Below, piece after piece: positions 43 through 50,599 of a DNA stretch of 64,000 bases. The translations under genes were made by a program, and so were the position numbers. The DNA is taken from the NCBI GenBank assembly GCA_050946275.1, contig JBMNUM010000001.1, positions 92,690 to 156,689 of the forward strand, in the 5' to 3' direction. Under the pieces are notes generated by a model, which saw only the letters and a program-made list of their open reading frames with translations, made no database searches and had not been told where the DNA came from. Positions within the stretch are counted from its first letter, which is position 1, and every line of letters starts with the position of its first letter. This DNA is from Coriobacteriales bacterium (GTDB lineage: Bacteria; Actinomycetota; Coriobacteriia; Coriobacteriales; CADBOM01).

Positions 43-329
43 GTCCCAAAATGCGGGGTTGTCGAAAAACGGGCCCTCCGTGCATGGAAAACGCCCTCCT
101 ATGTCCCAAAATGAGGGTTTGTCGAAAGCGTCGAGCTCCGGATTTTTCGACAAACCCTCATTTCGGGACACGATTTTTCGACAACCCCGCATTTTTTGGC
201 AGTCGGCAGTGAGTCGGCTTCGACAACCCCGCATTTTTGGACAGGCGGGCCGCGAAAACGCGCCCGGGCGCTCCGTTTTTCGACAACCCCTCATTTTTGG
301 ACAGGCGGGCCGCGAAAACGCGCGCGGGC
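43..329. repeat. Family-A nested-palindrome intergenic element, copy 1 (more diverged). It has two forward half-sites GTCCCAAAATG(C/A)GGG(G/T)TTGTCGAAA followed by four reverse half-sites TTTCGACAA(C/A)CCC(G/T)CATTTTTGG.
   Basis: Half-sites read directly at about 43, 103 (forward) and 144, 173, 218, 276 (reverse). The inner pair 103/144 and the outer pair 43/173 are mutually complementary. The architecture matches 18970-19227 and the reverse complement of 49744-50029. Confidence 0.8.
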
Positions 330-628: not shown

Positions 629-2527
629 ATGAGAACGCTCCATATCATGGACACCACCCTGCGTGATGCGCATCAGTCGCTGTGGGCGACGAGGATGCAG
701 ACCGGCGACATGCTGCCCATCTTGGACAAGCTCGACGAAGTGGGCTACTGGGCGCTCGAGGCGTGGGGCGGCGCGACGTTCGACACGTGCCTGCGCTTTC
801 TCGACGAGAATCCGTGGGAGCGCCTGCGCGCCATCAAGAAGCACTGCCCGAAGACGCCGCTCTCGATGCTCTCGCGTGGCCAGAACCTCGTCGGCTACCG
901 CCATTACTCGAAGGACATCGTGACGCGCTTCCTGAAGGCCGCGCAGCGCAACGGCATCGACGTGTTCCGCGTGTTCGACGCGCTCAACGACATCCGCAAC
1001 GTTGTCGATAGCGCCGAGGCCATCAAGGAGTGCGGCGCGCATCTCGAGGGCGCCATCTCCTACACGATGAGCCCGGTCCACACGCTCGACAGCTACATCG
1101 AGTACGCGCAGAAGTGGAAGGACCTCGGAGCGGACTCCATCTGCATCAAGGACATGGCCGGCATGCTCACCCCGTACCGCACCGAGCGCATCTGCACGGC
1201 GCTGCGCGAGGAGATCGGCCTCCCCATCCACCTGCATTGCCACTACGTCGGCGGCATGGCGCCTGCCAACTACATCAAGGCGGCCGAGGCCGGCGCGGCC
1301 ATCGTCGACACGGCGTCGGCGCCCCTCGCGTTCGGCAACTCCCAGCCCGCGGTCGAGATGATCGTCGCGGCGCTCAAGGAGTCCGGCTACGACACGGGCC
1401 TCGACCTCGACCTGCTGTTCGAGATCGCCCAGTACTGGGAGGGCGTCCGCGAGCGCAACCACTACAAGCGCGGCGTCAGCTCGCTCATCCACATGCAGGT
1501 CTACAGCCATCAGGTGCCGGGCGGCATGATGAGCAACCTCATCAGCCAGCTCGAGATCCAGAAGGCCGGCGACCGTCTCCAGGACGTCATGGACGAGATC
1601 CCCAAGGTGCGCGCCGAGGTCGGCTATCCGCCGCTCGTCACGCCCATGTCGCAGATCGTCGGCACGCAGGCCGTGCTGAACGTCCTGACCGGCCAGCGCT
1701 GGTCGATGGTTCCGGCGGAGATGAAGGACTACCTCGCCGGCCTCTACGGCAAGGCGCCCGGCCCGCTGAACCTCGACATCGTCAGCAAGGTGCTCGGCGA
1801 CACGAAGCCGCTCGATCCGGACGTGTGGCCCAGCAGCCTGAACACGAAATCGTACGAGGAGTACGAGGAGGAGATCGGGGACCTCGCCCGCAGCGAGGAG
1901 GACGTGCTCATGTACGCCCTGTTCCCGGAGAGCGCCCGCGCGTACTTGGAGAAGCATCGTTCATCCGGCAAGACTTCATTCCTGCTCGAGGAGGAGTCCA
2001 GCGCGATCATTGAGGAGGACTACGTGGATATCAACCAGATCAAGGAGCTCATGCGTGCATTCGAGGACTCGGGACTCGGCGAGATCTCCATCGAGGAGCC
2101 GGGCATGAAGGTCGTGCTCCGCGACAAGAGCCAGGCCGTCGCGGCGGCCCCCGTCATCATGCAGGCGGCCGACCAGCAGGCGCCGGCAGCGCCTGCCGCG
2201 GCGGAGAAGCCCGCCAAGGACAGCGGTGAACGCCCCGGCCTCATCGCGATCAAGTCGCCGATGGTCGGCACGTTCTACGCGGCCCCCTCGCCCGGTGCGG
2301 ATCCGTTCGTGCAGGTTGGCGACGAGGTCATGGCCGGCCAGTCGGTCTGCATCGTCGAGGCGATGAAGCTCATGAACGAGGTTCCCGCCGACCAGACGGG
2401 CGTCATCCGCGAGATCTGCGTCGAGGACGCCTCGCCCGTCGAGTACGGCACGGTGCTCTTCTACCTCGAGCCCATGCACGACGCGACGCCGGGCTCCGCC
2501 GACGCTGCGATGGGAGAGGGCGAGTAG
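629..2527 (+). CDS. pycB: Carboxyltransferase (5S/HMGL-like) subunit with a fused C-terminal biotinyl carrier domain. Likely pyruvate carboxylase subunit B or an oxaloacetate decarboxylase alpha-type protein.
   Basis: 632-aa ORF. N-terminus MDTTLRDAHQS...GIDVFRVFDALND is typical of the carboxyltransferase TIM-barrel. C-terminus carries a biotinyl domain with the EAMKLMNE motif. SD AAGGGAGGGAGG lies upstream of ATG 629. A biotin carboxylase gene follows directly. Confidence 0.8.
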   Translation: MRTLHIMDTTLRDAHQSLWATRMQTGDMLPILDKLDEVGYWALEAWGGATFDTCLRFLDENPWERLRAIKKHCPKTPLSMLSRGQNLVGYRHYSKDIVTRFLKAAQRNGIDVFRVFDALNDIRNVVDSAEAIKECGAHLEGAISYTMSPVHTLDSYIEYAQKWKDLGADSICIKDMAGMLTPYRTERICTALREEIGLPIHLHCHYVGGMAPANYIKAAEAGAAIVDTASAPLAFGNSQPAVEMIVAALKESGYDTGLDLDLLFEIAQYWEGVRERNHYKRGVSSLIHMQVYSHQVPGGMMSNLISQLEIQKAGDRLQDVMDEIPKVRAEVGYPPLVTPMSQIVGTQAVLNVLTGQRWSMVPAEMKDYLAGLYGKAPGPLNLDIVSKVLGDTKPLDPDVWPSSLNTKSYEEYEEEIGDLARSEEDVLMYALFPESARAYLEKHRSSGKTSFLLEEESSAIIEEDYVDINQIKELMRAFEDSGLGEISIEEPGMKVVLRDKSQAVAAAPVIMQAADQQAPAAPAAAEKPAKDSGERPGLIAIKSPMVGTFYAAPSPGADPFVQVGDEVMAGQSVCIVEAMKLMNEVPADQTGVIREICVEDASPVEYGTVLFYLEPMHDATPGSADAAMGEGE

Positions 2528-8812: not shown

Positions 8813-10460
8813 GGAACTCCACGTATCCAATCTCGCGCTCATCGAGAGCGCGACGCTCGAGTTCTCGCCCGGGCTCACGGTGCTCACCGGTGAGACGGGG
8901 ACGGGCAAGACCGCGCTTCTCGGCGCGATAAAGCTCATCATCGGCTCGCGGGCCGACGCCTCGTCGGTTCGCGACGGGCAGCGCGAGGCCGTGGTGGAGG
9001 CCCTGTTCTCCGTGAATGCCGAGCAGGAGACCGCCCTTGCCGAGCAGGGGCTCGAAGCCGCCGACGGCCAGCTGGTCGCACGGCGCCGCCTGAGTGCCGA
9101 CGGCCGCTCGCGCTGCTACCTCAACGGCGGGATGGCGACGGTCGGCGCACTCGAGGCATCCGTGGGCTCGCTCGTCGAGCTGCACGGTCAGCACGAGCAC
9201 CAGCGCCTTCTTACGCCGCGCTCGCACCGCCTGTTCCTCGACGCCTGGGGCGACGAGGCGATCTCCCCGCTGCGGGAGGGGTACGCTGCGGCGTTCGATG
9301 CCTGGCGGGTCGCATCCGATCGACTTGCCGAGGCGCGCGATTCCGCCCGGCTCACGTCCGAGAAGCTCGAGGAGGCGCGCTTCCTGTGCGCGCAAGTCGA
9401 GGCCGTCGGCCCGCAACCGGGTGAGCTCGACGAGCTCGAGGCGCGGCTGCCCATCCTGCGCGACGGCGAATCGCTTGCGCGCTCGGCAGCGGAGGCGCTT
9501 GCCATCATGCGCTCCGAGGGAGGGGCGCTCGAGCTGCTGGGAAGCGCCCGCCGCGCTCTCGCGCGCGGCGAGGGGACCGACCCGCGCCTCGATGCGCTTG
9601 GCGAGCGGCTCGAGGGCCAGCTTGCCGACATCGAGGACCTCGCGCTCGAGCTGCGCTCCTACGGCGAGCAGGTGGAATTCGACCCCGAGGCTCTCGCGGC
9701 CGCACTCGAGCGGCTCGGCCAGCTCGACGGCCTCGTGCGACGCTTCGGCCCAACATACGACGAGATGCTCTCGAGATGGGAGGAGGCGCAGCGGCTCGTC
9801 GCCCTGCACGACGACGAGGCCGGCATGCTCGGCCGGCTCGAGCGCGCAGCCGACGAGGCAGCCCGCAACCTGCAAGCCGCGGCGGCCGCGCTCGAGGATG
9901 CGCGGCGGGAGACCGCGACGGCGTTTTGCGCGGAGCTCGGCGTCCGTGTCGCCGAGCTTGCGATGACCGGCGCGTCCTTCGAGATGAGCTGCACGGAGCT
10001 CGAGATGGGCCAGTGGACGCGCGATGCGTCGTGCCGCTACGAGCTCCTCTACGCACCGGCTCCCACCGTCGCCCCGCGTCCGCTCGCGCGCATCGCGAGC
10101 GGCGGCGAGCTCTCGCGCGTCATGTTGGCGCTCGAGTGCATGGTGGACGCGGACGAGGGTGCCGTGCTCGTGTTCGACGAGGTCGATGCAGGTATCGGCG
10201 GGGCGACCGCCCGCGCCGTCGCGGATCTGATCGAACGCCTCGCGGCAACGCGCCAGGTCATCGTCGTCACGCACCTCGCCCAGATCGCGACGCGCGCCGA
10301 CGCGCATCTGCTCGTCGAGCGCCACGATGACGGGGAGACGGCGCGCACGGTGATCCGGCCCATCGATGGCGAGGAGCGCGTCGCCGAGATCGCCCGCATG
10401 CTCTCGGGATCCGTCGACGACGAGTCCCTGGCCCACGCCCGCATGATGCTCGGACGCTAA
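8805..10460 (+). CDS. recN: DNA repair protein RecN (SMC-like ATPase).
   Basis: 551 aa. Walker A GETGTGKT at the N-terminus, long coiled-coil, C-terminal ASGGELSRVMLAL signature and VLVFDEVDAGIGG Walker B. Confidence 0.92.
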   Translation: MIEELHVSNLALIESATLEFSPGLTVLTGETGTGKTALLGAIKLIIGSRADASSVRDGQREAVVEALFSVNAEQETALAEQGLEAADGQLVARRRLSADGRSRCYLNGGMATVGALEASVGSLVELHGQHEHQRLLTPRSHRLFLDAWGDEAISPLREGYAAAFDAWRVASDRLAEARDSARLTSEKLEEARFLCAQVEAVGPQPGELDELEARLPILRDGESLARSAAEALAIMRSEGGALELLGSARRALARGEGTDPRLDALGERLEGQLADIEDLALELRSYGEQVEFDPEALAAALERLGQLDGLVRRFGPTYDEMLSRWEEAQRLVALHDDEAGMLGRLERAADEAARNLQAAAAALEDARRETATAFCAELGVRVAELAMTGASFEMSCTELEMGQWTRDASCRYELLYAPAPTVAPRPLARIASGGELSRVMLALECMVDADEGAVLVFDEVDAGIGGATARAVADLIERLAATRQVIVVTHLAQIATRADAHLLVERHDDGETARTVIRPIDGEERVAEIARMLSGSVDDESLAHARMMLGR

Positions 10461-10491
10461 GCGCCACCCTGACCACCCACCGTTCGACAAA

Positions 10492-10666
10492 GGCAATCAG
10501 CAAACCCGCATTCCGGGGTTCCATGTGGGGGTTGCTGACCGCGCTTTAGGTTCAGGCAATCAGCAGGCCCGCATTTCGGTCTCCTAGGTGAGGTTTGCTG
10601 ATTGCACCTGCGCTTCGGGCAATCAGCAAACCTTCATTTCGACCCGCCAGGTGGGGTTTGCTGACC
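10492..10666. repeat. Family-B tandem hairpin repeat array, about 3 units of about 60 bp.
   Basis: Unit is GGCAATCAGCAAACCCGCATT-N13-GTGGGGTTTGCTGACCGC. CAGCAAACCC is complementary to GGGTTTGCTG, giving a 10-bp stem with a loop of about 19 nt. Three units were read directly. Confidence 0.8.
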
Positions 10667-10748
10667 TTGGCAAAGGGGTCACATGGCAAACACGTCTGGC
10701 GTGTTTGCCATGCACCTCACGCAAAGGCAAGGCACATTGGGGCTCTCT

Positions 10749-17420: not shown

Positions 17421-17684
17421 AACACTCGACGCTGCGCGGGCCCACAGCATGCCGCCTTGCCGTTCAACAAGAACCTCGCGGGCATAAGCCCGGCGAGAAC
17501 CTTGTTTCGCGGCAATTCGGCGCACTGTGGGCCCGCTCGCTGTCTCTGCGAACGATTCCGGGCTCGCCGGAGGTTGCCTCTCTCGGCCGCTCGACGCGGC
17601 TATCGCACTCGGCAGCCGGCCTCTCGCTGACGTTACTAACAATCCCGGGCTCGTTTTGGTTGCGGCGATCGGGTTTTTGTCTCA

Positions 17685-18692
17685 TTACCTGCGTGGGCGG
17701 AGGCGGGCTCGGGGATGGCACGTGAGGTACTCGTCGCGCACGTGTGCGCGGTCGACGTGCGTGTAGATCTGCGTGGTGGAGATGTCGCTGTGGCCGAGTA
17801 TCTCCTGGATCGAGCGCAGGTCGGCACCGCCCTCGAGCATGTGCGTCGCGAAGGAGTGGCGCAGCGTGTGGGGGTGCAGGTCCTCGAGCCCGACGCTCTC
17901 CCCGGCTGCGCGCACGATGTTGAAGACGGCCTGCCGTGTGATGCGCCTGCCGCGGGCGTTGAGGAACACGGCGTTCGCATCGGCCGGACCCGTCACGCCC
18001 TTGGGGTGCAACAGCAGCCTGCCGCGCTCGAGGTAGGTGGTGAGAGCGGAGAGCGCCGTTCCGCCGATGGGGACCACGCGCTCCTTCGACCCCTTTCCGA
18101 ACACCTGGATGAACTCCTCGTCGAGGAAGAGGCGCTGCATGTCGAGTCCGACGAGCTCCGACACGCGGATGCCGCAACCGTACAGCAGCTCGAGGATCGC
18201 CTTGTCGCGCATGCCGCGCGGGTCGTCGGGGAACGACTGGTCGAGCAGCGACGAGATCTCGGCGATGCTGATGGTGCGGGGGAGGCGTTGGGGCTTGCGG
18301 GGGAGGGGAACTGTCGACGACGGGTCGGTCGGGGCGAAGCGCTCCGCGACGCAGAACCGGTGGAACCGCTTGATCGCCGACAGCGCGCGTTCGAGCGAGG
18401 TCGGCGCATAGCCGCAGTCGCTCAGGGCCGCGAGGTATGCCGTGACGTGCTTGCGCGTCGCGTCGCGGACGTCGTGGACGCCGGAGCTGTCGAGGTACGC
18501 GCAGTAGCGGCGAACGTCGCGCAGGTAGCCGTCGAGCGTGTTGCCCGAGGCGCCGCGTTCCAGCGAAAGGTACGCGGAGAACTCCCCGAAGGGCTCCTCG
18601 AACCCGAAGGGCAGGTCGTCGGAGAAGTACGCCTCGTCGCCCTTGGCGGTGTTTCCACGCGCATGCGCGCTATGTGCGTCATCGGCTTTCAT
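17685..18692 (-). CDS. xerD: Site-specific tyrosine recombinase, XerC/XerD family.
   Basis: N-terminal SAM-like domain ([27 protein letters not shown]). Catalytic C-terminus has [39 protein letters not shown]. The start is uncertain: ATG 18692, ATG 18710, or the ORF-track start 18809. Confidence 0.8.
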
Positions 18693-18969
18693 GCCGCAGC
18701 TGTCTCCCATCGAGTCCGCCCGCGCCAACGTTGGCCGCGGGTTCCGTGTTCGCGCCCGCCGGGCCACTGGCTGTCCGCGAACCCACGCGCCGTCTCCGAC
18801 CCGGTGCACTTGCGCCCGCGGCCCACTGGCTGCCCGCCGACCCGCGCGTCGTGCTCTTGCAACCGCCGATTTGCGACGGATATCAACTGCCTCGAGTATA
18901 GCCGAATGGGTTTCGCGAGAATCAAACGGCTATGCCATGGATGCAGGTGCGCCCATCGATATCCTGCTG

Positions 18970-19227
18970 CCCCAAAGTGCGGGGATGTCGAAAACCAGAC
19001 CCGCCTTGCAAGGAAAACTCCCTCCCGTGTCCCAAAATGCGGGGATGTCGAAAGCGCGACGTTCCGGATTGTTCGACATCCCCGCATTTTCGGGCAAGAT
19101 TTTTCGACAACCCCGCATTTTCGGACACGTGGGAGGGATCCGCTTTCGACAACCCCGCATTTTGGGACAGGCGGGCCGCGAAAACGTGCACGGGCGTCTT
19201 CTTTTTCGACATCCCCGCATTTAGGGG
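18970..19227. repeat. Family-A nested-palindrome element, copy 2 (forward-forward-reverse x4).
   Basis: By manual alignment, about 90% identical to the reverse complement of 49744-50010. Half-sites lie at about 18970, 19029 (forward) and 19070, 19101, 19144, 19203 (reverse). Confidence 0.85.
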
Positions 19228-19316
19228 CGCCCATGCCGTGGCCGTCGGCCGCGATGGACCCGGGTTCCCGGCGCCCGCCGGCTGCGCGCGGGCGAAGAAT
19301 CGCGTGTTCGGGCCCA

Positions 19317-19524
19317 GGTGGGGTTTGCTGACCGCCCTTGCGCCAACCGCAATCAGCAAACCCGCATTTGGAGCCGCCATGTGGGGTTTGCTGACCGCGC
19401 TAGCGGCAACGGCAATCAGCAAACCCGCATTTGGACCTCCGGTGTGGGGCTTGCTGACCGCTCTTGCGCTTCCGGCAATCAGCAAACCCGCATTCCGGGC
19501 AGCGGTGTGGGGTTTGCTGACCGC
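19317..19524. repeat. Family-B tandem hairpin repeat array, about 3.5 units of 62-63 bp, directly abutting family-A copy 2.
   Basis: GTGGGGTTTGCTGACCGC-N15-GCAATCAGCAAACCCGCATT-N13 is repeated. Read directly. Confidence 0.85.
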
Positions 19525-19640
19525 TCTTGCGGTCTGCGCTCTGGCGGGTCGAAGCGCGCCGCGTCCCTCCAACCCCTCTTCCCATATATTGTGTGCGAAC
19601 ATGCGTTCTCTACTATATGCGGAAATCAGCCCAAATGCGC

Positions 19641-19723
19641 CGGTCATCGAATGACCGCTGATGTCATAAAAAATCATAAAATGTCATAAAAAGTTTGATT
19701 TTGGGCATCCGGTGGCCTATTAT
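19641..19723 (+). promoter_or_regulatory. Candidate dcw (Pmra) promoter with 10-bp-phased direct repeats, a possible MraZ operator.
   Basis: (G/A)TCATAAAA(A/T) appears three times with an exact 10-bp period at 19663-19692. It is preceded by the palindrome CGGTCATCGAATGACCG at 19641-19657. -35 TTGATT (19695-19700), 17-bp spacer, -10 TATTAT (19718-19723). This lies about 50 nt upstream of the mraZ GTG. Confidence 0.5.
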
Positions 19724-19772: not shown

Positions 19773-20204
19773 GTGTCCGTATTTCTCTTTGGAGAATACA
19801 AACACAACCTAAACGCAGCTGGACGCGTTTCGATACCGCCTGCCTTCCGCGAGGCCATCGGCTCGACCGTCGTGCTGGTTCCGGGTCCCGACGGCCAGCT
19901 GAACGGTTTCACCCCGGAGGGTTTCCAGGAGTATCGCGAGACGCTGTTCGACAAGGACGGTGGCTTCGATAGGCGAAATCCCAATCATGCGAAGATCATG
20001 ACCAGCATGAGCAGGAGCGCCAAGATGGCCAGCTTCGACAAGGCCGGCCGTCTTCTCATCTCCGAGGAGCACCGTACGGCCGCGGATCTGGAGGGCGCGG
20101 TCTCGATCGTCGGCGACGGGGATCACTTCTCCATCTGGAACCCGGAGAAGCTCGATGCCTACACCGCGGATGCCGAGGCCAGCTTCTACCGCACCGACAT
20201 CTAG
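19773..20204 (+). CDS. mraZ: Transcriptional regulator MraZ.
   Basis: GTG start after AAGGGAGGG. VSVFLFGEYKHNLNAAGRVSIPPAFR matches the first MraZ SpoVT/AbrB-like repeat, and a second repeat includes AGRLLISEEHR. Confidence 0.9.
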   Translation: MSVFLFGEYKHNLNAAGRVSIPPAFREAIGSTVVLVPGPDGQLNGFTPEGFQEYRETLFDKDGGFDRRNPNHAKIMTSMSRSAKMASFDKAGRLLISEEHRTAADLEGAVSIVGDGDHFSIWNPEKLDAYTADAEASFYRTDI

Positions 20205-36587: not shown

Positions 36588-38516
36588 CTACAAGATGTGC
36601 TTGTGGTTCTTCATCCATGAATACGTCTTCATGAAGTACGTGGTCTTGGCCTTCTTGGTCTTGGAGGCGTCCCAGGTGGTGTCGACGTAGTAGGTCTTGC
36701 CCTTGATGACGATCTTGTTCCACGCGTGCTCGTTGGCACGGCCCTTCGGCGTGGTCTTGCCCACGACGACCGTGCAGCTCAGGCCGACCTTGTTGCACAT
36801 GTCGCGGTAGAGCGTCGCGTAGCCGAGGCAGCGCGAGGACTTCTTCACGGCCGCGGCGTACGTGGTCCAGGAGAGGTCGGAGACGGGCTTGTAGTCGTAG
36901 CGGACGTTGGTGGCGATCCAATCGTGGATGTACCTCGCACGCTTGACCGGGTCCTTGATCCTCTTGGCCTTCTTGATGACGTTTTGCTGGACCTTGTTCT
37001 GCTGGGCCACCATCTTGGTGATGGTCGGCTTGTTGAAGGTGTAGCGGAAGAAGAGGCTCTTGGCCGGCGTCTGGGTCTTCGTCGTGGTGACCTTGCCCGT
37101 GACGGGGTCGATGGTCCTTCTCGTCGTCCGCAGCGCATCCGAGTAGACGAGCTTGACGTTTTGCGTGTAGCTGTCCGTGTACCTCTTGGGGGACTGCCCG
37201 CCCTGCCACAGCTGGTATGCCTTCTGGAGCGTGTCGTAGGAGAAGCAGAACCTCTCGACATCGACCCTCGCGGAGCACGCGCGGGCCACGTTGGTCATGA
37301 CCTGCACGGCCTTGTTGGGGTTGTTGTAGCGCGAGGTGACGTTGGAGAACGCGAATATCTGGGACTTGCCGCCGTTTTCGGCCCATAGCTGGACGTTGGT
37401 CTTGTTGGCGGTATTGCCGCCCTTGACGTCGATGGCCAGCTCATCGACGTCATATGCCTTGGTGTAGATGGGGACGATCTCGTAGTCCTTGCCGCTCCTC
37501 TGGATGATGAACTTCTGGGCGTTGGAGCCGTTTTGCTGGTAGAGGACGATGTTCGTGCCGTTCTTCGTGCCCGTGGCGTTGGCATGGAGGGCGAGGTTGC
37601 TCTTCATGTTGATGATCGTGTAGAGACCGCGCTCGTCGACCTTGAAATACCATGCCTGGGCATCGGAGTTGTTGGACTGGTGGATCTGGACGTTCGTGCC
37701 GTTCTTGACGCCGCCGCCGGCGGCCTCGAGCACCTTGCCCGTCGCGCAGTAGAGCCTGATGATGTAGACACCCGATTTGACGGGGGCGGCGTACACGCGC
37801 TCGGACACGTCGTATGCGGCCTGTCGCCTGGCCTCGGCTTCCGCCTCAGCCTTGGCCTTCGCCTCGGCCTCTGCGCGGGCCTTCGCCTCAGCTTCCACCC
37901 GCGCGGCCGCCTCTGCCTCTGCCCTTGCCTTCGCCTCCGCCTCCGCTGCGGCCTGAGCCTCGGCCTCGGCCGCTGCCTGCGCCTCCGCCTCGGCCAGCGC
38001 CGCCGCCTCGGCCTCGGCTGCCGCCGCGGCGTCCGCCTCGGCCTGGGCGGGATCGACCTCGCCCGCCACCTCGGCGTTCTCTGCGACGGTGTCATCGGTG
38101 CTCTGCGCCGTCTCGTCGCTGGCGGTCTGCGCATCGGCATCCTGCTGCTCGGGCACGGGCGTCTCGGCGGCCTGGCCCTCGTCAGGCGTCTCGGCGGGAG
38201 GAGTCGTCTCGGCGAGCTGGGTCTCGCCCGACGGGGTGGTCTCCGCAGGTGCCTCCGCACCTTCCTGGCTGGGCGGCCAGGGAGCGGGTTGCTGCTCGGT
38301 GGACTCGTCCTGGTCCGTGGTTCCCTCGAGATCGCCCGCGAGGGGCACGGAATCGTCCGTGATGGTGTCGGACGGCTGCTCCTGGGTGGCGCCGGGTCCG
38401 GGTGCGGGCTTCTCGGCGCTCGGAGCGCATGCGGTTGCGAGGAATGCGATATAGGCGACGCACAGGGCGGCGACGATCGCGGTGATGAGCCGTTTTCTCG
38501 TTTTAGCCCTTCTCAT
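36588..38516 (-). CDS. Predicted lipoprotein. Domains in order: disordered acidic region, Glu/Ala/Lys-rich helical repeat, ricin-type beta-trefoil lectin, transglutaminase-like domain.
   Basis: Signal peptide plus lipobox-like AFLATAC. (AEAEA[KQA]A[RA])n tract. QxW-type trefoil repeats (SDAQAWYF, SNAQKFII, GKSQIFAF). C-terminal SSRCLGYATLYRDMCNKVGL...HAWNKIVIKGKTYYVDTTWD. Confidence 0.8.
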   Translation of the reverse strand: MRRAKTRKRLITAIVAALCVAYIAFLATACAPSAEKPAPGPGATQEQPSDTITDDSVPLAGDLEGTTDQDESTEQQPAPWPPSQEGAEAPAETTPSGETQLAETTPPAETPDEGQAAETPVPEQQDADAQTASDETAQSTDDTVAENAEVAGEVDPAQAEADAAAAAEAEAAALAEAEAQAAAEAEAQAAAEAEAKARAEAEAAARVEAEAKARAEAEAKAKAEAEAEARRQAAYDVSERVYAAPVKSGVYIIRLYCATGKVLEAAGGGVKNGTNVQIHQSNNSDAQAWYFKVDERGLYTIINMKSNLALHANATGTKNGTNIVLYQQNGSNAQKFIIQRSGKDYEIVPIYTKAYDVDELAIDVKGGNTANKTNVQLWAENGGKSQIFAFSNVTSRYNNPNKAVQVMTNVARACSARVDVERFCFSYDTLQKAYQLWQGGQSPKRYTDSYTQNVKLVYSDALRTTRRTIDPVTGKVTTTKTQTPAKSLFFRYTFNKPTITKMVAQQNKVQQNVIKKAKRIKDPVKRARYIHDWIATNVRYDYKPVSDLSWTTYAAAVKKSSRCLGYATLYRDMCNKVGLSCTVVVGKTTPKGRANEHAWNKIVIKGKTYYVDTTWDASKTKKAKTTYFMKTYSWMKNHKHIL

Positions 38517-38696
38517 CGTCGTCCGTCCTCTCCGTCCGTGGTCGTGAAGGCAATATGTCTTGCGGCCAGGATGACTTCAGGGATGTCAACGTCTGCCTAC
38601 CATACGTATAGGCTATTTTACAACGTCATACAAACGCTTAGCGAAATTGGTTGGTTTGCGAGGATATTGGTCGTGGCGTGGCAGCGGTTGCCGGCC

Positions 38697-48413: not shown

Positions 48414-48768
48414 CCGGAGCGGGCCGGGCGGCCGCGCCATGGGTTGGTCCCATGGTGAGGAAAGTCCGGGCTCCACAGGGCAGGATGCCAGCTAACGGCT
48501 GGGCGGGGCGACCCGACGGAAAGTGCCACAGAAAAGGAAACTCCCCTGTACCTTCGGGTGCGGGAGAAAAGCTGAAAAGGTGCGGTAAGAGCGCACCAGC
48601 GTCGCGGTAACGCGGCGGCTTGGCAAACCCCATCCGGAGCAAGGGCAAATAGGGGTGCTATGCGCTGGCCCGGCGTGCATCCGGGTTGCCTGCTAGAGCT
48701 GTCCGGCGACGGGCAGTCGAGATAAATGACCGCACACGACAGAACCCGGCTTACAGGCCCGCTCCGGT
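48414..48768 (+). ncRNA. rnpB: RNase P RNA, bacterial type A.
   Basis: Universally conserved GAGGAAAGTCCGGGCTCCACAGGGCA and ACAGAACCCGGCTTA blocks. The 5' CCGGAGCGGGCC pairs with the 3' GGCCCGCTCCGG (P1). Confidence 0.92.
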
Positions 48769-48782
48769 TCATCATCTTCGCG

Positions 48783-49047
48783 CCTTGCTGACCGCTCCTG
48801 CGGCAGCGGCAATCAGCAAACCCGCATTTCGACCCTCAAGGTGGGGTTTGCTGACCGCGGACCGGGCAACGACAATCAGCAAACCCGCATTCCGGCCTCC
48901 CAGGTGGGGTTTGCTGACCGCTCCTGCGGCAGCGGCAATCAGCAAACCCGCATTTCGACCCTCAAAGTGGGGTTTGCTGACCGCTCCTGCGCTTCCGGCA
49001 ATCAGCAAACCCGCATTCCAGCCTCCCGGGTGGGGTTTGCTGATTGC
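48783..49047. repeat. Family-B tandem hairpin repeat array, about 4 units with a 62-63 bp period.
   Basis: Units start at 48841, 48904, 48966 and 49029 (GTGGGGTTTGCTGA...). Each contains AATCAGCAAACCCGCATT(T/C)C. The array lies between convergent rnpB and the tRNA operon. Confidence 0.88.
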
Positions 49048-49160
49048 GGTTGACATCCGTGGAGGCCATTATCCGCCCGGCACTGCGTCCGTCCGGTGCC
49101 GTGTCCCGCGTACAGGGGAAAACAGCCAATTATGGCTTGAGGCTTGAAAGGGGGCTAGGG

Positions 49161-49191
49161 CAAACAAAAAGGCCAACCGTTCGGTTGACCT
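49161..49191 (-). terminator. Rho-independent terminator of the tRNA-Gln/tRNA-Glu operon.
   Basis: The minus strand reads AGGTCAACCG-AA-CGGTTGGCCT followed by TTTTTGTTTG. Confidence 0.75.
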
Positions 49192-49199
49192 GAAGTAGT

Positions 49200-49276
49200 T
49201 GGTAGCCCGTGCGGGATTCGAACCCGCGATCTCCGCCTTGAGAGGGCGGTGTCCTAAACCGCTAGACGAACGGGCC
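49200..49276 (-). tRNA. tRNA-Glu (anticodon CTC).
   Basis: Manual cloverleaf: GGCCCGT acceptor (G1-U72), anticodon arm CCGCC-CTCTCAA-GGCGG, T-arm GCGGG-TTCGAAT-CCCGC, encoded CCA. Confidence 0.85.
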
Positions 49277-49293
49277 ATTCACAGTTGCTCTAA

Positions 49294-49367
49294 TGGCTGG
49301 GGTGGAAGGAGTCGAACCCTCACTGACGGAACCAGAATCCGCTGTCCTACCATTAGACGACACCCCA
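49294..49367 (-). tRNA. tRNA-Gln (anticodon CTG).
   Basis: Manual cloverleaf: acceptor TGGGGTG/CACCCCA, anticodon loop TTCTGGT, T-loop TTCGACT, encoded CCA. Confidence 0.85.
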
Positions 49368-49414
49368 GTGCAGAGAGCAGATCGAGCACTCGGTGCCCTG
49401 CAAATGCAAGAGAG

Positions 49415-49443
49415 ATATTACAGAAGGGCGCGGACGTTGGCAA
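49415..49443 (-). promoter_or_regulatory. Sigma-70-type promoter of the tRNA-Gln/Glu operon.
   Basis: Minus strand: TTGCCA, 17-nt spacer, TAATAT, about 45 nt upstream of the tRNA-Gln 5' end. Confidence 0.65.
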
Positions 49444-49488
49444 GTGTGAATTTCAAATTGACCGTTCACGAACGACGAGCGGAAACTG

Positions 49489-49696
49489 AGGGGCTTACTG
49501 ACCCCGCTTGCGGCGAGAGCAATCAGCAAACCCGCATTTCGACCTCCCAGGTGGGGTTTGCTGACCGCGTTCGGGGTCCCGGCAATCAGTAAACCCGCAT
49601 TTCGACCCCTCATGTGGGGTTTGCTGACCGCTGGGAGAGCGACTGCAGTCAGCAAACCCGCATTCCGGCCTCCCGTGTGGGGTTTGCTGATTGCGC
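49489..49696. repeat. Family-B tandem hairpin repeat array, about 3.5 units.
   Basis: The same unit as at 48783-49047. It abuts family-A copy 3, mirroring the A+B arrangement at 18970-19524. Confidence 0.85.
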
Positions 49697-49743
49697 TTAT
49701 GGCGGGCGACAGAGTATGGCCGCCGGGCTAGGTCTCGTCCGTC

Positions 49744-50029
49744 TGTCCGGAAATGCGGGGATGTCGAAAACAGGGGCGCCCGTGCACGTTTCCACGGCCC
49801 GCCTGTCCCAAATTGCGGGGTTGTCGAAAGCGGATCCCTCCCGCCTGTCCGGAAATGCGGGGTTGTCGAAAAATCTTGCCCGAAAACGCGGGGATGTCGA
49901 ATAATCCGGAGCGCCCCGCTTTCGACATCCCCGCATTTTGGGACACGGGAGGGAGTTTTCCTTGCAAGGCGGGTCTGGTTTTCGACAAACCCGCAATTTC
50001 GGGCCCTCGCGTGGGGCTTGCTGATTGCG
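49744..50029. repeat. Family-A nested-palindrome element, copy 3 (inverted relative to copy 2), ending in an A/B hybrid unit.
   Basis: Four forward and two reverse half-sites. Its reverse complement aligns at about 90% identity to 18970-19227. The last unit joins TTTCGACAAACCCGCAATTTCGGG to GTGGGGCTTGCTGATTGCG. Confidence 0.85.
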
Positions 50030-50032
50030 TTC

Positions 50033-50100
50033 GGGAAAAACGCCCCTGCGTTGGGGCGTTGTCTTTGAGGTGGCGCGCCCTGGGGTTCGAGCGCCCGGAG
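50033..50100 (-). repeat. Direct duplicate of the tRNA-Arg 3' end plus its terminator, with a decayed T-arm.
   Basis: 50033-50082 matches 50166-50220 almost base for base (apart from a 5-nt indel) across the terminator hairpin plus TGGCGCGCCCTG. The following GGGGTTCGAGCGCCCGG resembles AGGGATTCGAACCCCCGG of the tRNA, but no acceptor 5' strand is present. Confidence 0.7.
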
Positions 50101-50167
50101 AACGTGCCGGCTTTAGCCGGCCCAGGGGCCGGAGGCCAGGTGCGAATCCCTCCGCGGGGATGTTCGG

Positions 50168-50326: not shown

Positions 50327-50599
50327 ATGCATTCGCCGAGCGGACGGTGACCGGTTTGCGGATCGTGCAGGGCAACGCATGACCGAGGGGCGGCTGCGCG
50401 TGCGCCGCGGCGGCTCGCAGGCCTGCTCGCAGGTCGTCCGGGCCCGACGACGCACGGTTGGGGGATGGGAGCGGCGGCTCGCATGCATGCTCGCAGGCCG
50501 CATGGGTGCGGCAAGACGCTGGCGGGGAGGGGCGAGGGTGGGTCCACCTCGACGACTCACAAGCCTGCTCGCAGGCCGCGTTCGCGCGCAGCCGGACCG

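Follow-up and report, generated by a model that had tools for sequence, protein, structure and literature searches.

The intergenic region between the divergent genes xerD and mraZ of an uncultured Coriobacteriales bacterium contains an element of about 260 bp, built from half-sites in both orientations, that recurs within the 64,000-nucleotide stretch of contig JBMNUM010000001.1 analyzed here (the window, to which all coordinates refer unless another contig is named). The question that this locus raises is whether the element is mobile, a structured transcript, an array of protein-binding sites or something else. We find that it is a real, previously undescribed non-coding palindromic mosaic repeat family, recently dispersed among the intergenic regions of one uncultured Coriobacteriales bacterium, which we call family A. 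On balance we favor the reading that family A is a lineage-specific mosaic repeat acting at the DNA level, similar in kind to bacterial interspersed mosaic elements (BIMEs), to REPINs (doublets of repetitive extragenic palindromic, REP, sequences forming hairpins) and to BOX elements; it would be moved or copied by a factor acting in trans, in the form of a fold-back hairpin, and be expanded locally by slippage or recombination.

Three copies are present in the window, where an earlier reading made from the letters alone (the sequence-only reading) had placed them at 43-329, 18970-19227 and, inverted, 49744-50010. Each consists of six 25-nt half-sites with the consensus TTTCGACAWCCCCGCATTTTGGGAC, two forward (F) and then four reverse (R), in the order F F R R R R, inverted in copy 3:

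43 to 329, plus strand: family A copy 1, with half-sites F1 43-67, F2 103-127, R1 145-169, R2 176-200, R3 218-242 and R4 278-302
18969 to 19228, plus strand: family A copy 2, the element under study, with half-sites F1 18969-18993, F2 19029-19053, R1 19071-19095, R2 19102-19126, R3 19144-19168 and R4 19204-19228
49745 to 50004, minus strand: family A copy 3, inverted, with half-sites R4 49745-49769, R3 49805-49829, R2 49847-49871, R1 49878-49902, F2 49920-49944 and F1 49980-50004

The start-to-start spacing of the half-sites (60/42/31/42/60 nt) is the same in all three copies. A 19-nt half-site pattern allowing ≤3 mismatches finds 18 matches in the window, six per copy, against 0.02 expected from dinucleotide-preserving shuffles, and a 15-nt pattern finds 19 against 1.55 expected. 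The two-forward, four-reverse layout that had been proposed holds. Copies 2 and 3, mutually inverted and 30.5 kb apart, have 92% identity across 254 nt; copy 1 shares 80-82% with either, where manual estimates had been about 90% and 75%. From copy to copy, every position in the series of half-sites retains a characteristic sequence. F1 and R4 form inverted termini that differ at 2-5 of 25 nt and, when spacers are included, match over ~40 nt, and F2 with R1 forms a 25-bp inner palindrome. In all pairwise comparisons homology begins sharply at F1; on the opposite side it runs on into one of two spacer types and then into units of a second family, B.

The building block is ~25-32 nt long, TTTCGACAWCCCCGCATTTTGGGAC(AGGCGGG), and the ~260-bp unit comprises the six full half-sites plus degenerate half-sites within the spacers. 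The spacer GGCGGGCCGCGAAAA downstream of R3 is one such degenerate forward half-site, as is the AGGCGGGCCGCGAAAACG that follows both R3 and R4 in copy 1. The sequence-only reading had described two extra reverse half-sites that each precede a repeated motif; this is true of copy 1, the only one in which GGACAGGCGGGCCGCGAAAACG follows both R3 and R4, but in copies 2 and 3 the motif follows R3 only. It had also described pairing between the spacers CTCCCTCCCGTG and CACGTGGGAGGG, which is present in copies 2 and 3 but weak in one further copy (L117, below) and absent from copy 1 and from another (L116).

All documented family A copies are intergenic. The window genome is 65.8% G+C with a strong coding signature at third codon positions, and no copy lies within an open reading frame (ORF) carrying that signature, despite an IMG 'hypothetical protein' (P0136) called on ORF 18922-19677, minus strand, which spans copy 2; the view that no copy sits in a credible coding sequence therefore holds. 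All six reading frames of the element are open, and 'hypothetical proteins' of 147-304 aa in IMG, ENA and Logan (P0121-P0125, P0134-P0140) are nothing but translations of A and B repeats; these calls are annotation artefacts.

Because all six frames are open, translations of the element are usable as protein queries, and protein collections were searched with its six-frame translations to reach copies elsewhere over which ORFs had been called. Such ORFs (P0121, P0122, P0123/P0125, P0124, P0134, P0135, P0137, P0138, P0139, P0140) were found on seven further JGI contigs, in two ENA samples and in one Logan run. They document up to eight additional family A copies, at least five of them at different places, P0134 and P0135 being close enough to P0121 to be the same locus in other assemblies. 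The three copies in the window are thus not the sole ones: the total is up to 11 copies at no fewer than 8 distinct places, on JGI contigs totalling ~692 kb (not necessarily one genome) and in the ENA and Logan sequences. DNA was recovered for three of the further copies. L116 lies upstream of a gene resembling histidine kinases, L117 has atpC on one side and a convergent gene on the other, and L120 comes from ENA. All three retain the 2+4 layout and spacing. Among copies documented by ORFs, P0137 has one extra forward unit (3+4) and another has an extra forward pair. All six copies known as DNA can be aligned over their whole length (in an alignment of five, columns average 81% identity) and score 269-311 bits against a full-length profile, to which nothing else in 945 kb of compared DNA aligns at full length.

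We found no described family to which these copies belong. At the Rfam gathering thresholds the window yields RNase P RNA and tRNAs and no other family, and permissive thresholds added nothing specific; the best match over the element, to a plant miRNA hairpin model, scores 38 bits against a gathering score of 84, and the only models matching are generic hairpins (miRNA precursors). Blastn against plasmids, phages and 5,426 E. coli genomes gave no match, and a literature search on the motif strings and on REPs in Coriobacteriia found no described family. An exact-pattern scan with TTCGACAWCCCCGCATTT returned 53 loci in GTDB species genomes and 58 in JGI metagenomes, each a single site, and no match in IMG/VR; the single sites are chance matches, because the full-length profile aligns to them only around the seed (4-17 bits). 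Neither a full-length element nor an autonomous insertion sequence (IS) bearing the motif or termini was found in the GTDB species genomes, JGI metagenomes, IMG/VR, plasmids or phages. As no described family matches, the repeat constitutes a new one, and the earlier failure to recognize it is upheld.

Copy 2 is predicted to fold at -143 and -151 kcal/mol on the two strands (z = -9.4 and -8.7 against shuffled sequences). A single A half-site folds at only -1.2 and -1.5 kcal/mol, with z about 0; only doublets fold, F2:R1 at -24.5 kcal/mol and the 43-mer of family B at -15.8 kcal/mol. In a five-copy alignment, the nesting of F1:R4 around F2:R1 is 91.6% paired, with R2 and R3 left over, and holds 6 compensated pairs, a number equalled in 15/500 shuffles; its covariation score was reached by 2/500. 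The imperfect nested hairpin described by the sequence-only reading is borne out in its strong folding and its inner F2:R1 stem, but not in its outer stem: the F1:R2 pairing proposed there has 4 compensated pairs, equalled in 131/500 shuffles, and covariation favors F1:R4. RNAalifold returns the same nesting, with an outer stem extending into the spacers to ~40 bp. The double variant AAACCCTCA of copy 1 is found in both F2 and R1. Based on five or six sequences, the covariation suggests that partner half-sites change together, as either selection for the hairpin or conversion within the element would have them do.

These very stable predicted folds, a consensus structure with compensatory changes in 9/90 pairs and the shared orientation of four of the six copies to the next downstream gene are what a family of structured RNAs would produce, whether small RNAs or cis-acting 5' or 3' elements with the nested hairpin as the functional fold. 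However, both strands fold equally well, and the structure follows from the repeat, since every paired region is a repeated half-site. The orientation is reversed or neutral in L117 and L120, and Rfam offers nothing beyond generic hairpin models far below their gathering scores. No predicted promoter is positioned to transcribe copies 2 and 3: the predicted mraZ promoter comes only after copy 2 in the xerD-mraZ gap, and copy 3 is placed downstream of the predicted tRNA-Arg terminator but ahead of the predicted tRNA-Gln/Glu promoter. These predictions would leave both copies outside transcription units and, with the variable orientation to neighboring genes in L117 and L120, argue for a role at the DNA rather than the RNA level. 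We therefore consider a family of structured transcripts, one of the two readings first offered for this element, very unlikely.

Family A usually adjoins family B, although each also occurs independently. Family B has a 63-nt tandem period in which the half-sites GGGTTTGCTGA and TCAGCAAACCC strictly alternate at intervals of 31/32 nt; the hairpins that they form are 43 nt long and share a conserved CC·AA mismatch. The B arrays and the spacers that join them to family A in the window are:

10495 to 10669 (wider delimitation 10460-10673), plus strand: family B array in the convergent recN/murJ intergenic region
19229 to 19315, plus strand: type I spacer from A to B, conserved with the L116 copy
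19316 to 19530 (wider delimitation 19253-19592), plus strand: family B array beside copy 2, with seven alternating half-sites
48776 to 49048 (wider delimitation 48713-49115), plus strand: family B array between the RNase P RNA (48416-48769) and tRNA-Glu
49486 to 49695 (wider delimitation 49486-49762), plus strand: family B array between copy 3 and the tRNA-Gln/tRNA-Glu module
49696 to 49744, minus strand: type II spacer from A to B, containing GGCGGCCATAC, conserved with the L117 and L120 copies
50014 to 50024 (wider delimitation 50014-50029): B-type half-site near F1 of copy 3

With 18 half-sites of A and 29 of B, the window holds 47. Copy 2 and L116 are homologous over 398 nt (A, type I spacer and first B unit) at 82% identity; because the spacer is conserved between both, these three parts were copied together in this subfamily. 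Copy 3 and L117 are homologous over 487 nt. The two families share the core CCCGCATTT, and the B half-site TCAGCAAACCCGCATTT resembles the A half-site TCGACAACCCCGCATTT. F1 of copy 3 pairs with a B-type half-site 32 nt away, giving a hybrid A/B hairpin, and F1 of L120 likewise pairs with a B half-site at the 32-nt spacing of B. From the likeness of the half-sites, this pairing and the degenerate forward site downstream of R3, we conclude that A and B form one superfamily. Between the homologous spacers of copy 2 and L116, the 13 nt right after R4 are inverted, reading, in element orientation, GCCCATGCCGTGG in copy 2 (19229-19241) and CCACGACATGGGC in L116 (4313-4325).

A sister lineage with the same gene order as the window, represented by contigs from several ENA samples (L114, L118, L119, L121, L122), is 89% identical to it in XerD and 76% in TerC at the amino-acid level. 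Its 39.8 kb of synteny contains 0 A or B half-sites, against the 47 of the window, and all three comparable sites are compact:

mraZ-xerD spacer: 1062 bp in the window, 274 bp in the sister lineage
recN-murJ spacer: 464 bp in the window, 53 bp in the sister lineage
RNase P to terC: 2272 bp in the window, 1124 bp in the sister lineage

Presence/absence polymorphism is thus seen at every comparable site. The region of copy 2 aligns with the sister intergenic region only in blocks, the junctions being too diverged for insertion boundaries at base level. From the absence in the sister synteny and the compact sites it follows that the family expanded in the lineage of the window once the two had separated; the less simple alternative is that the sister has been purged of it. 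Two further repeats lie near these genes. Just upstream of the xerD start, at 18750-18850, the direct repeat GCGCCCGCCGGGCCACTGGCTGTCCGC... / GCGCCCGCGGCCCACTGGCTGCCCGC... belongs to ~170 nt of extra sequence missing from the sister lineage. An imperfect inverted repeat at 17436-17536 (47-nt arms, 74% complementary, 7-nt loop), in the gap between a zinc-ribbon gene and the xerD 3' end, is unrelated to families A and B.

The same comparison bears on whether the repeats are arrays of sites for a host DNA-binding protein, nucleoid-associated, topological or regulatory, domesticated as architectural or insulating elements between transcription units. Several spacings lie near whole helical turns (31/32 nt, three turns; 42 nt, four; 63 nt, six), the sites occupy presumably untranscribed stretches that separate predicted terminators from predicted promoters around core genes (the dcw operon, tRNAs, atpC), and the half-sites have position-specific signatures. 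Against such arrays stands the sister lineage, which has none in the same gene order, so that these operons can do without them. Spacings of 60 nt do not correspond to a whole number of helical turns, the copies drift by 8-20% while partner sites change together, neither of which a pure site array needs, and no candidate protein was found among the window proteins. We hold this reading unlikely.

No consistent target-site duplication surrounds the six copies, whether the half-site boundary is tested or the ends are shifted 0-12 nt outward. Of the offset direct repeats, the two best, GCCCAT in copy 2 and CAGGGGTC in L117, belong to spacers whose sequence other members of the subfamily share. 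The lack of a duplication fits an HUH-type or recombinational mechanism, and it bears on a further alternative, in which a DDE transposon of Tn7, Mu or Tn402-Tn5053 type gave rise to the element as an 'ends-only' miniature derivative, the two F sites being the left end, the four closely spaced R sites the right end, and a TnsB/TniA/MuA-like transposase being encoded elsewhere. In favor of such ends, all copies conserve the 2+4 asymmetry of oriented sites and spacings of ≤60 nt. Work by Kamali-Moghaddam and Sundstrom in 2001 reportedly placed two TniA sites at one end of Tn5090/Tn402 and four at the other. Like family A, Tn7-like and Tn402/Tn5053 ends carry asymmetric oriented sites of ~20-25 bp, sparse at one end and denser at the other, and Tn7 ends have 3+4 transposase-binding sites (PMC8649781); family A has 2+4 in its six DNA copies and 3+4 in P0137. 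Copy 1, and no other copy, also starts with TGT and ends with ACA. However, the termini are TGC...GCG in copy 2 and different again in copy 3, no 5-bp or other duplication is consistent, and cargo and transposase are lacking: none of the window proteins scanned carries a transposase domain (including RAYT, the REP-associated tyrosine transposase, and rve-type transposases), and the GTDB, JGI, IMG/VR, plasmid and phage collections yielded no full-length motif-bearing element. Unlike transposon ends, the same half-site also forms the long alternating arrays of family B, into which the half-sites of family A run seamlessly, and degenerate ones fill the spacers, which a REP/BIME-like array fits better. 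An ends-only transposon is thus distinctly unlikely.

Signs of recombination accompany several copies. Copies sharing a spacer type are only 79-82% identical, whereas copies 2 and 3, which differ in spacer type, match at 92% in their cores; this suggests that gene conversion has taken place between the two, inverted and 30 kb apart as they are. In L117, the B3-A-135 nt block downstream of atpC is flanked by a direct duplication of ~105 nt (L117 500-660 and 1255-1390) containing a terminator hairpin and the palindrome GTGACAATCAC...GTGATTGTCAC; either a third module of the repeats or an unusually long duplication of the target may be at hand here. A similar palindrome, GTGACAATCA, lies beside the A copy in L120 (977-1010).

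A tRNA-Gln/tRNA-Glu module with its promoter and terminator (49157-49483, 327 nt, 93% identical to the sister lineage) is bracketed by the B arrays at 48776-49048 and 49486-49695. Relative to two sister assemblies (L121 8701-10000, and L122) the module has changed both strand and side with respect to tRNA-Arg, a rearrangement that could be repeat-mediated or a misassembly of the metagenome-assembled genome (MAG). Near copy 3, at 50035-50165, the tRNA-Arg 3' end and terminator (ACAACGCCCCAACGCAGGGGCGTTTTT) are duplicated ~135 nt away and are single in the sister lineage; the second 3'-end copy closes a tRNA-like pseudogene of ~95 nt that neither ARAGORN nor Rfam calls. Integration at a tRNA 3' end was considered and rejected, the duplicated tRNA-Arg 3' end enclosing only ~70 nt. 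Farther on, between the tRNA-Arg promoter and the terC 3' end, 50385-50578 holds three tandem copies of a 52-nt unit, spaced 64 and 78 nt apart and 73-75% identical.

Several other candidates were set aside as well. A CRISPR-like array does not agree with units that alternate in orientation, with conserved 'spacers' and with the absence of cas domains among the window proteins. A parS or iteron centromere would show a resemblance to parS or iteron motifs, and none is seen; the repeats also occupy many loci, not one. MraZ operator repeats are at odds with the same repeats at atpC, tRNA and other loci, and promoter arrays with the lack of -10/-35 matches within half-sites.

Among known repeat systems, the BIMEs of Enterobacteria (built of REP/PU units) come close. 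Like them, family A is a strictly intergenic mosaic of a short unit in both orientations with conserved linker motifs, and A and B share with them single or tandem arrays, fold-back potential, species-specific sequence and association with rearrangements. Unlike BIMEs, the unit is not palindromic alone, has no GTAG head and follows a fixed asymmetric 2+4 layout of 260 bp instead of simple alternation; there is no sequence similarity (no match in the 5,426 E. coli genomes), and the host is a member of the Coriobacteriales. REPINs, which are mobilized by RAYTs (for example in Pseudomonas fluorescens), likewise consist of inverted doublets that form a hairpin, as do F2:R1 and the 43-nt B hairpin, leave no target-site duplication and appear in lineage-specific bursts, clusters and arrays, but family A has two nested doublets plus two unpaired units, and no conserved GTAG or cleavage motif was recognized in it. 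A GTAG (GT[AG]G) head occurs in none of the 30 aligned half-sites of five copies nor in the six of L120, and the A half-site is not a self-folding short palindrome, so that family A may be called REP-like by analogy only.

The BOX elements of Streptococcus pneumoniae (boxA - boxB(n) - boxC) resemble the succession of A, spacer and B(n) in being modular with variable tandem internal subunits, and resemble A and B in being intergenic, with stable predicted folds and no known transposase; their sequence and host phylum are unrelated, and in the present case one related half-site underlies both A and B, each of which is also found without the other. MITEs, or miniature inverted-repeat transposable elements, such as Correia of Neisseria, ERIC/IRU and RUP share with family A small size, non-coding sequence, dispersal, terminal inverted repeats (F1/R4) and polymorphism between lineages, but family A differs in its internal multi-copy half-sites, its fusion with tandem arrays, and the lack of a consistent target-site duplication, and no related IS was found in the collections searched. 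The first description of the element as MITE/REP-like and mobile or recombinogenic is therefore apt for a dispersed fold-back repeat with signs of recombination, but not in the strict sense of a MITE.

Taken together, these comparisons suggest how the repeats might spread. A single strand exposed in replication would fold back into the nested hairpin, and a protein encoded elsewhere in the genome would recognize the half-site or the hairpin and copy or move the element to new intergenic sites. As with HUH/Y1 enzymes of RAYT or IS200/IS605 type, no short target duplication would be left; ectopic recombination would have the same outcome. Arrays in place would grow by slipped-strand or unequal recombination, giving the 60- and 63-nt tandem units and the flank duplications of 66-105 nt, and copies may exchange sequence by gene conversion and mediate rearrangements.

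Several points weigh against this mechanism. The window encodes no candidate mobilizing gene, only housekeeping genes. Unlike classical REPs, the single half-site neither folds alone nor carries a GTAG head. The covariation, drawn from so few sequences, could stem from gene conversion within the element and not from selection for the hairpin, and the absence in the sister lineage could in principle reflect loss there and not gain here. The source is a MAG contig, and around copy 3, where a short unique segment is enclosed by repeat arrays, the assembly could be in error. All measurements are compatible with a function for the host, protein binding for example. In this connection, the fixed 2+4 oriented array near helical-turn spacing might be a dedicated protein platform, serving either a new mobilization machine or a lineage-specific architectural factor of the Coriobacteriales, which we regard as quite improbable; in its mobilization version it could be an 'ends-only' fold-back element that leaves no target duplication and is able to carry modules such as the B-bracketed tRNA-Gln/Glu unit.

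The genes of the window are core housekeeping genes: a biotin carboxylase/oxaloacetate decarboxylase pair, dxs, recN, murJ, xerD, the mraZ-dcw cluster with ftsZ, sepF and divIVA, the RNase P RNA, four tRNAs, terC and a pknB/ftsW-PBP group. Copy 1 sits ~300 nt upstream of an oxaloacetate decarboxylase/pyruvate carboxylase subunit gene (629-2527, plus strand), and copy 2 is flanked by xerD (17685-18710, minus strand) and mraZ (19773-20204, plus strand). Elsewhere, within a ricin-lectin/transglutaminase gene (36588-38576, minus strand), GCC-rich periodic repeats of 12-24 nt at 37819-38070 presumably encode a low-complexity linker.

For the genome that carries them, the mosaic repeats of families A and B make up ~2% of the window and coincide with a rearranged tRNA locus and with the long upstream regions of core operons (mraZ/dcw). 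They also break short-read assemblies, a Logan contig (L054) ending inside the arrays, and attract spurious IMG 'hypothetical protein' calls, at least ten here. Interspersed palindromic mosaic repeats have long been known as a kind, and the general picture of bacterial repeats would change only if the mobilizing or binding protein proved to be new; in the Coriobacteriia, our literature search found no REP/BIME-type family described before. Because the expansion apparently took place after the split from a close relative, the window and its sister lineage would form a natural before/after comparison for the invasion of a genome by repeats.

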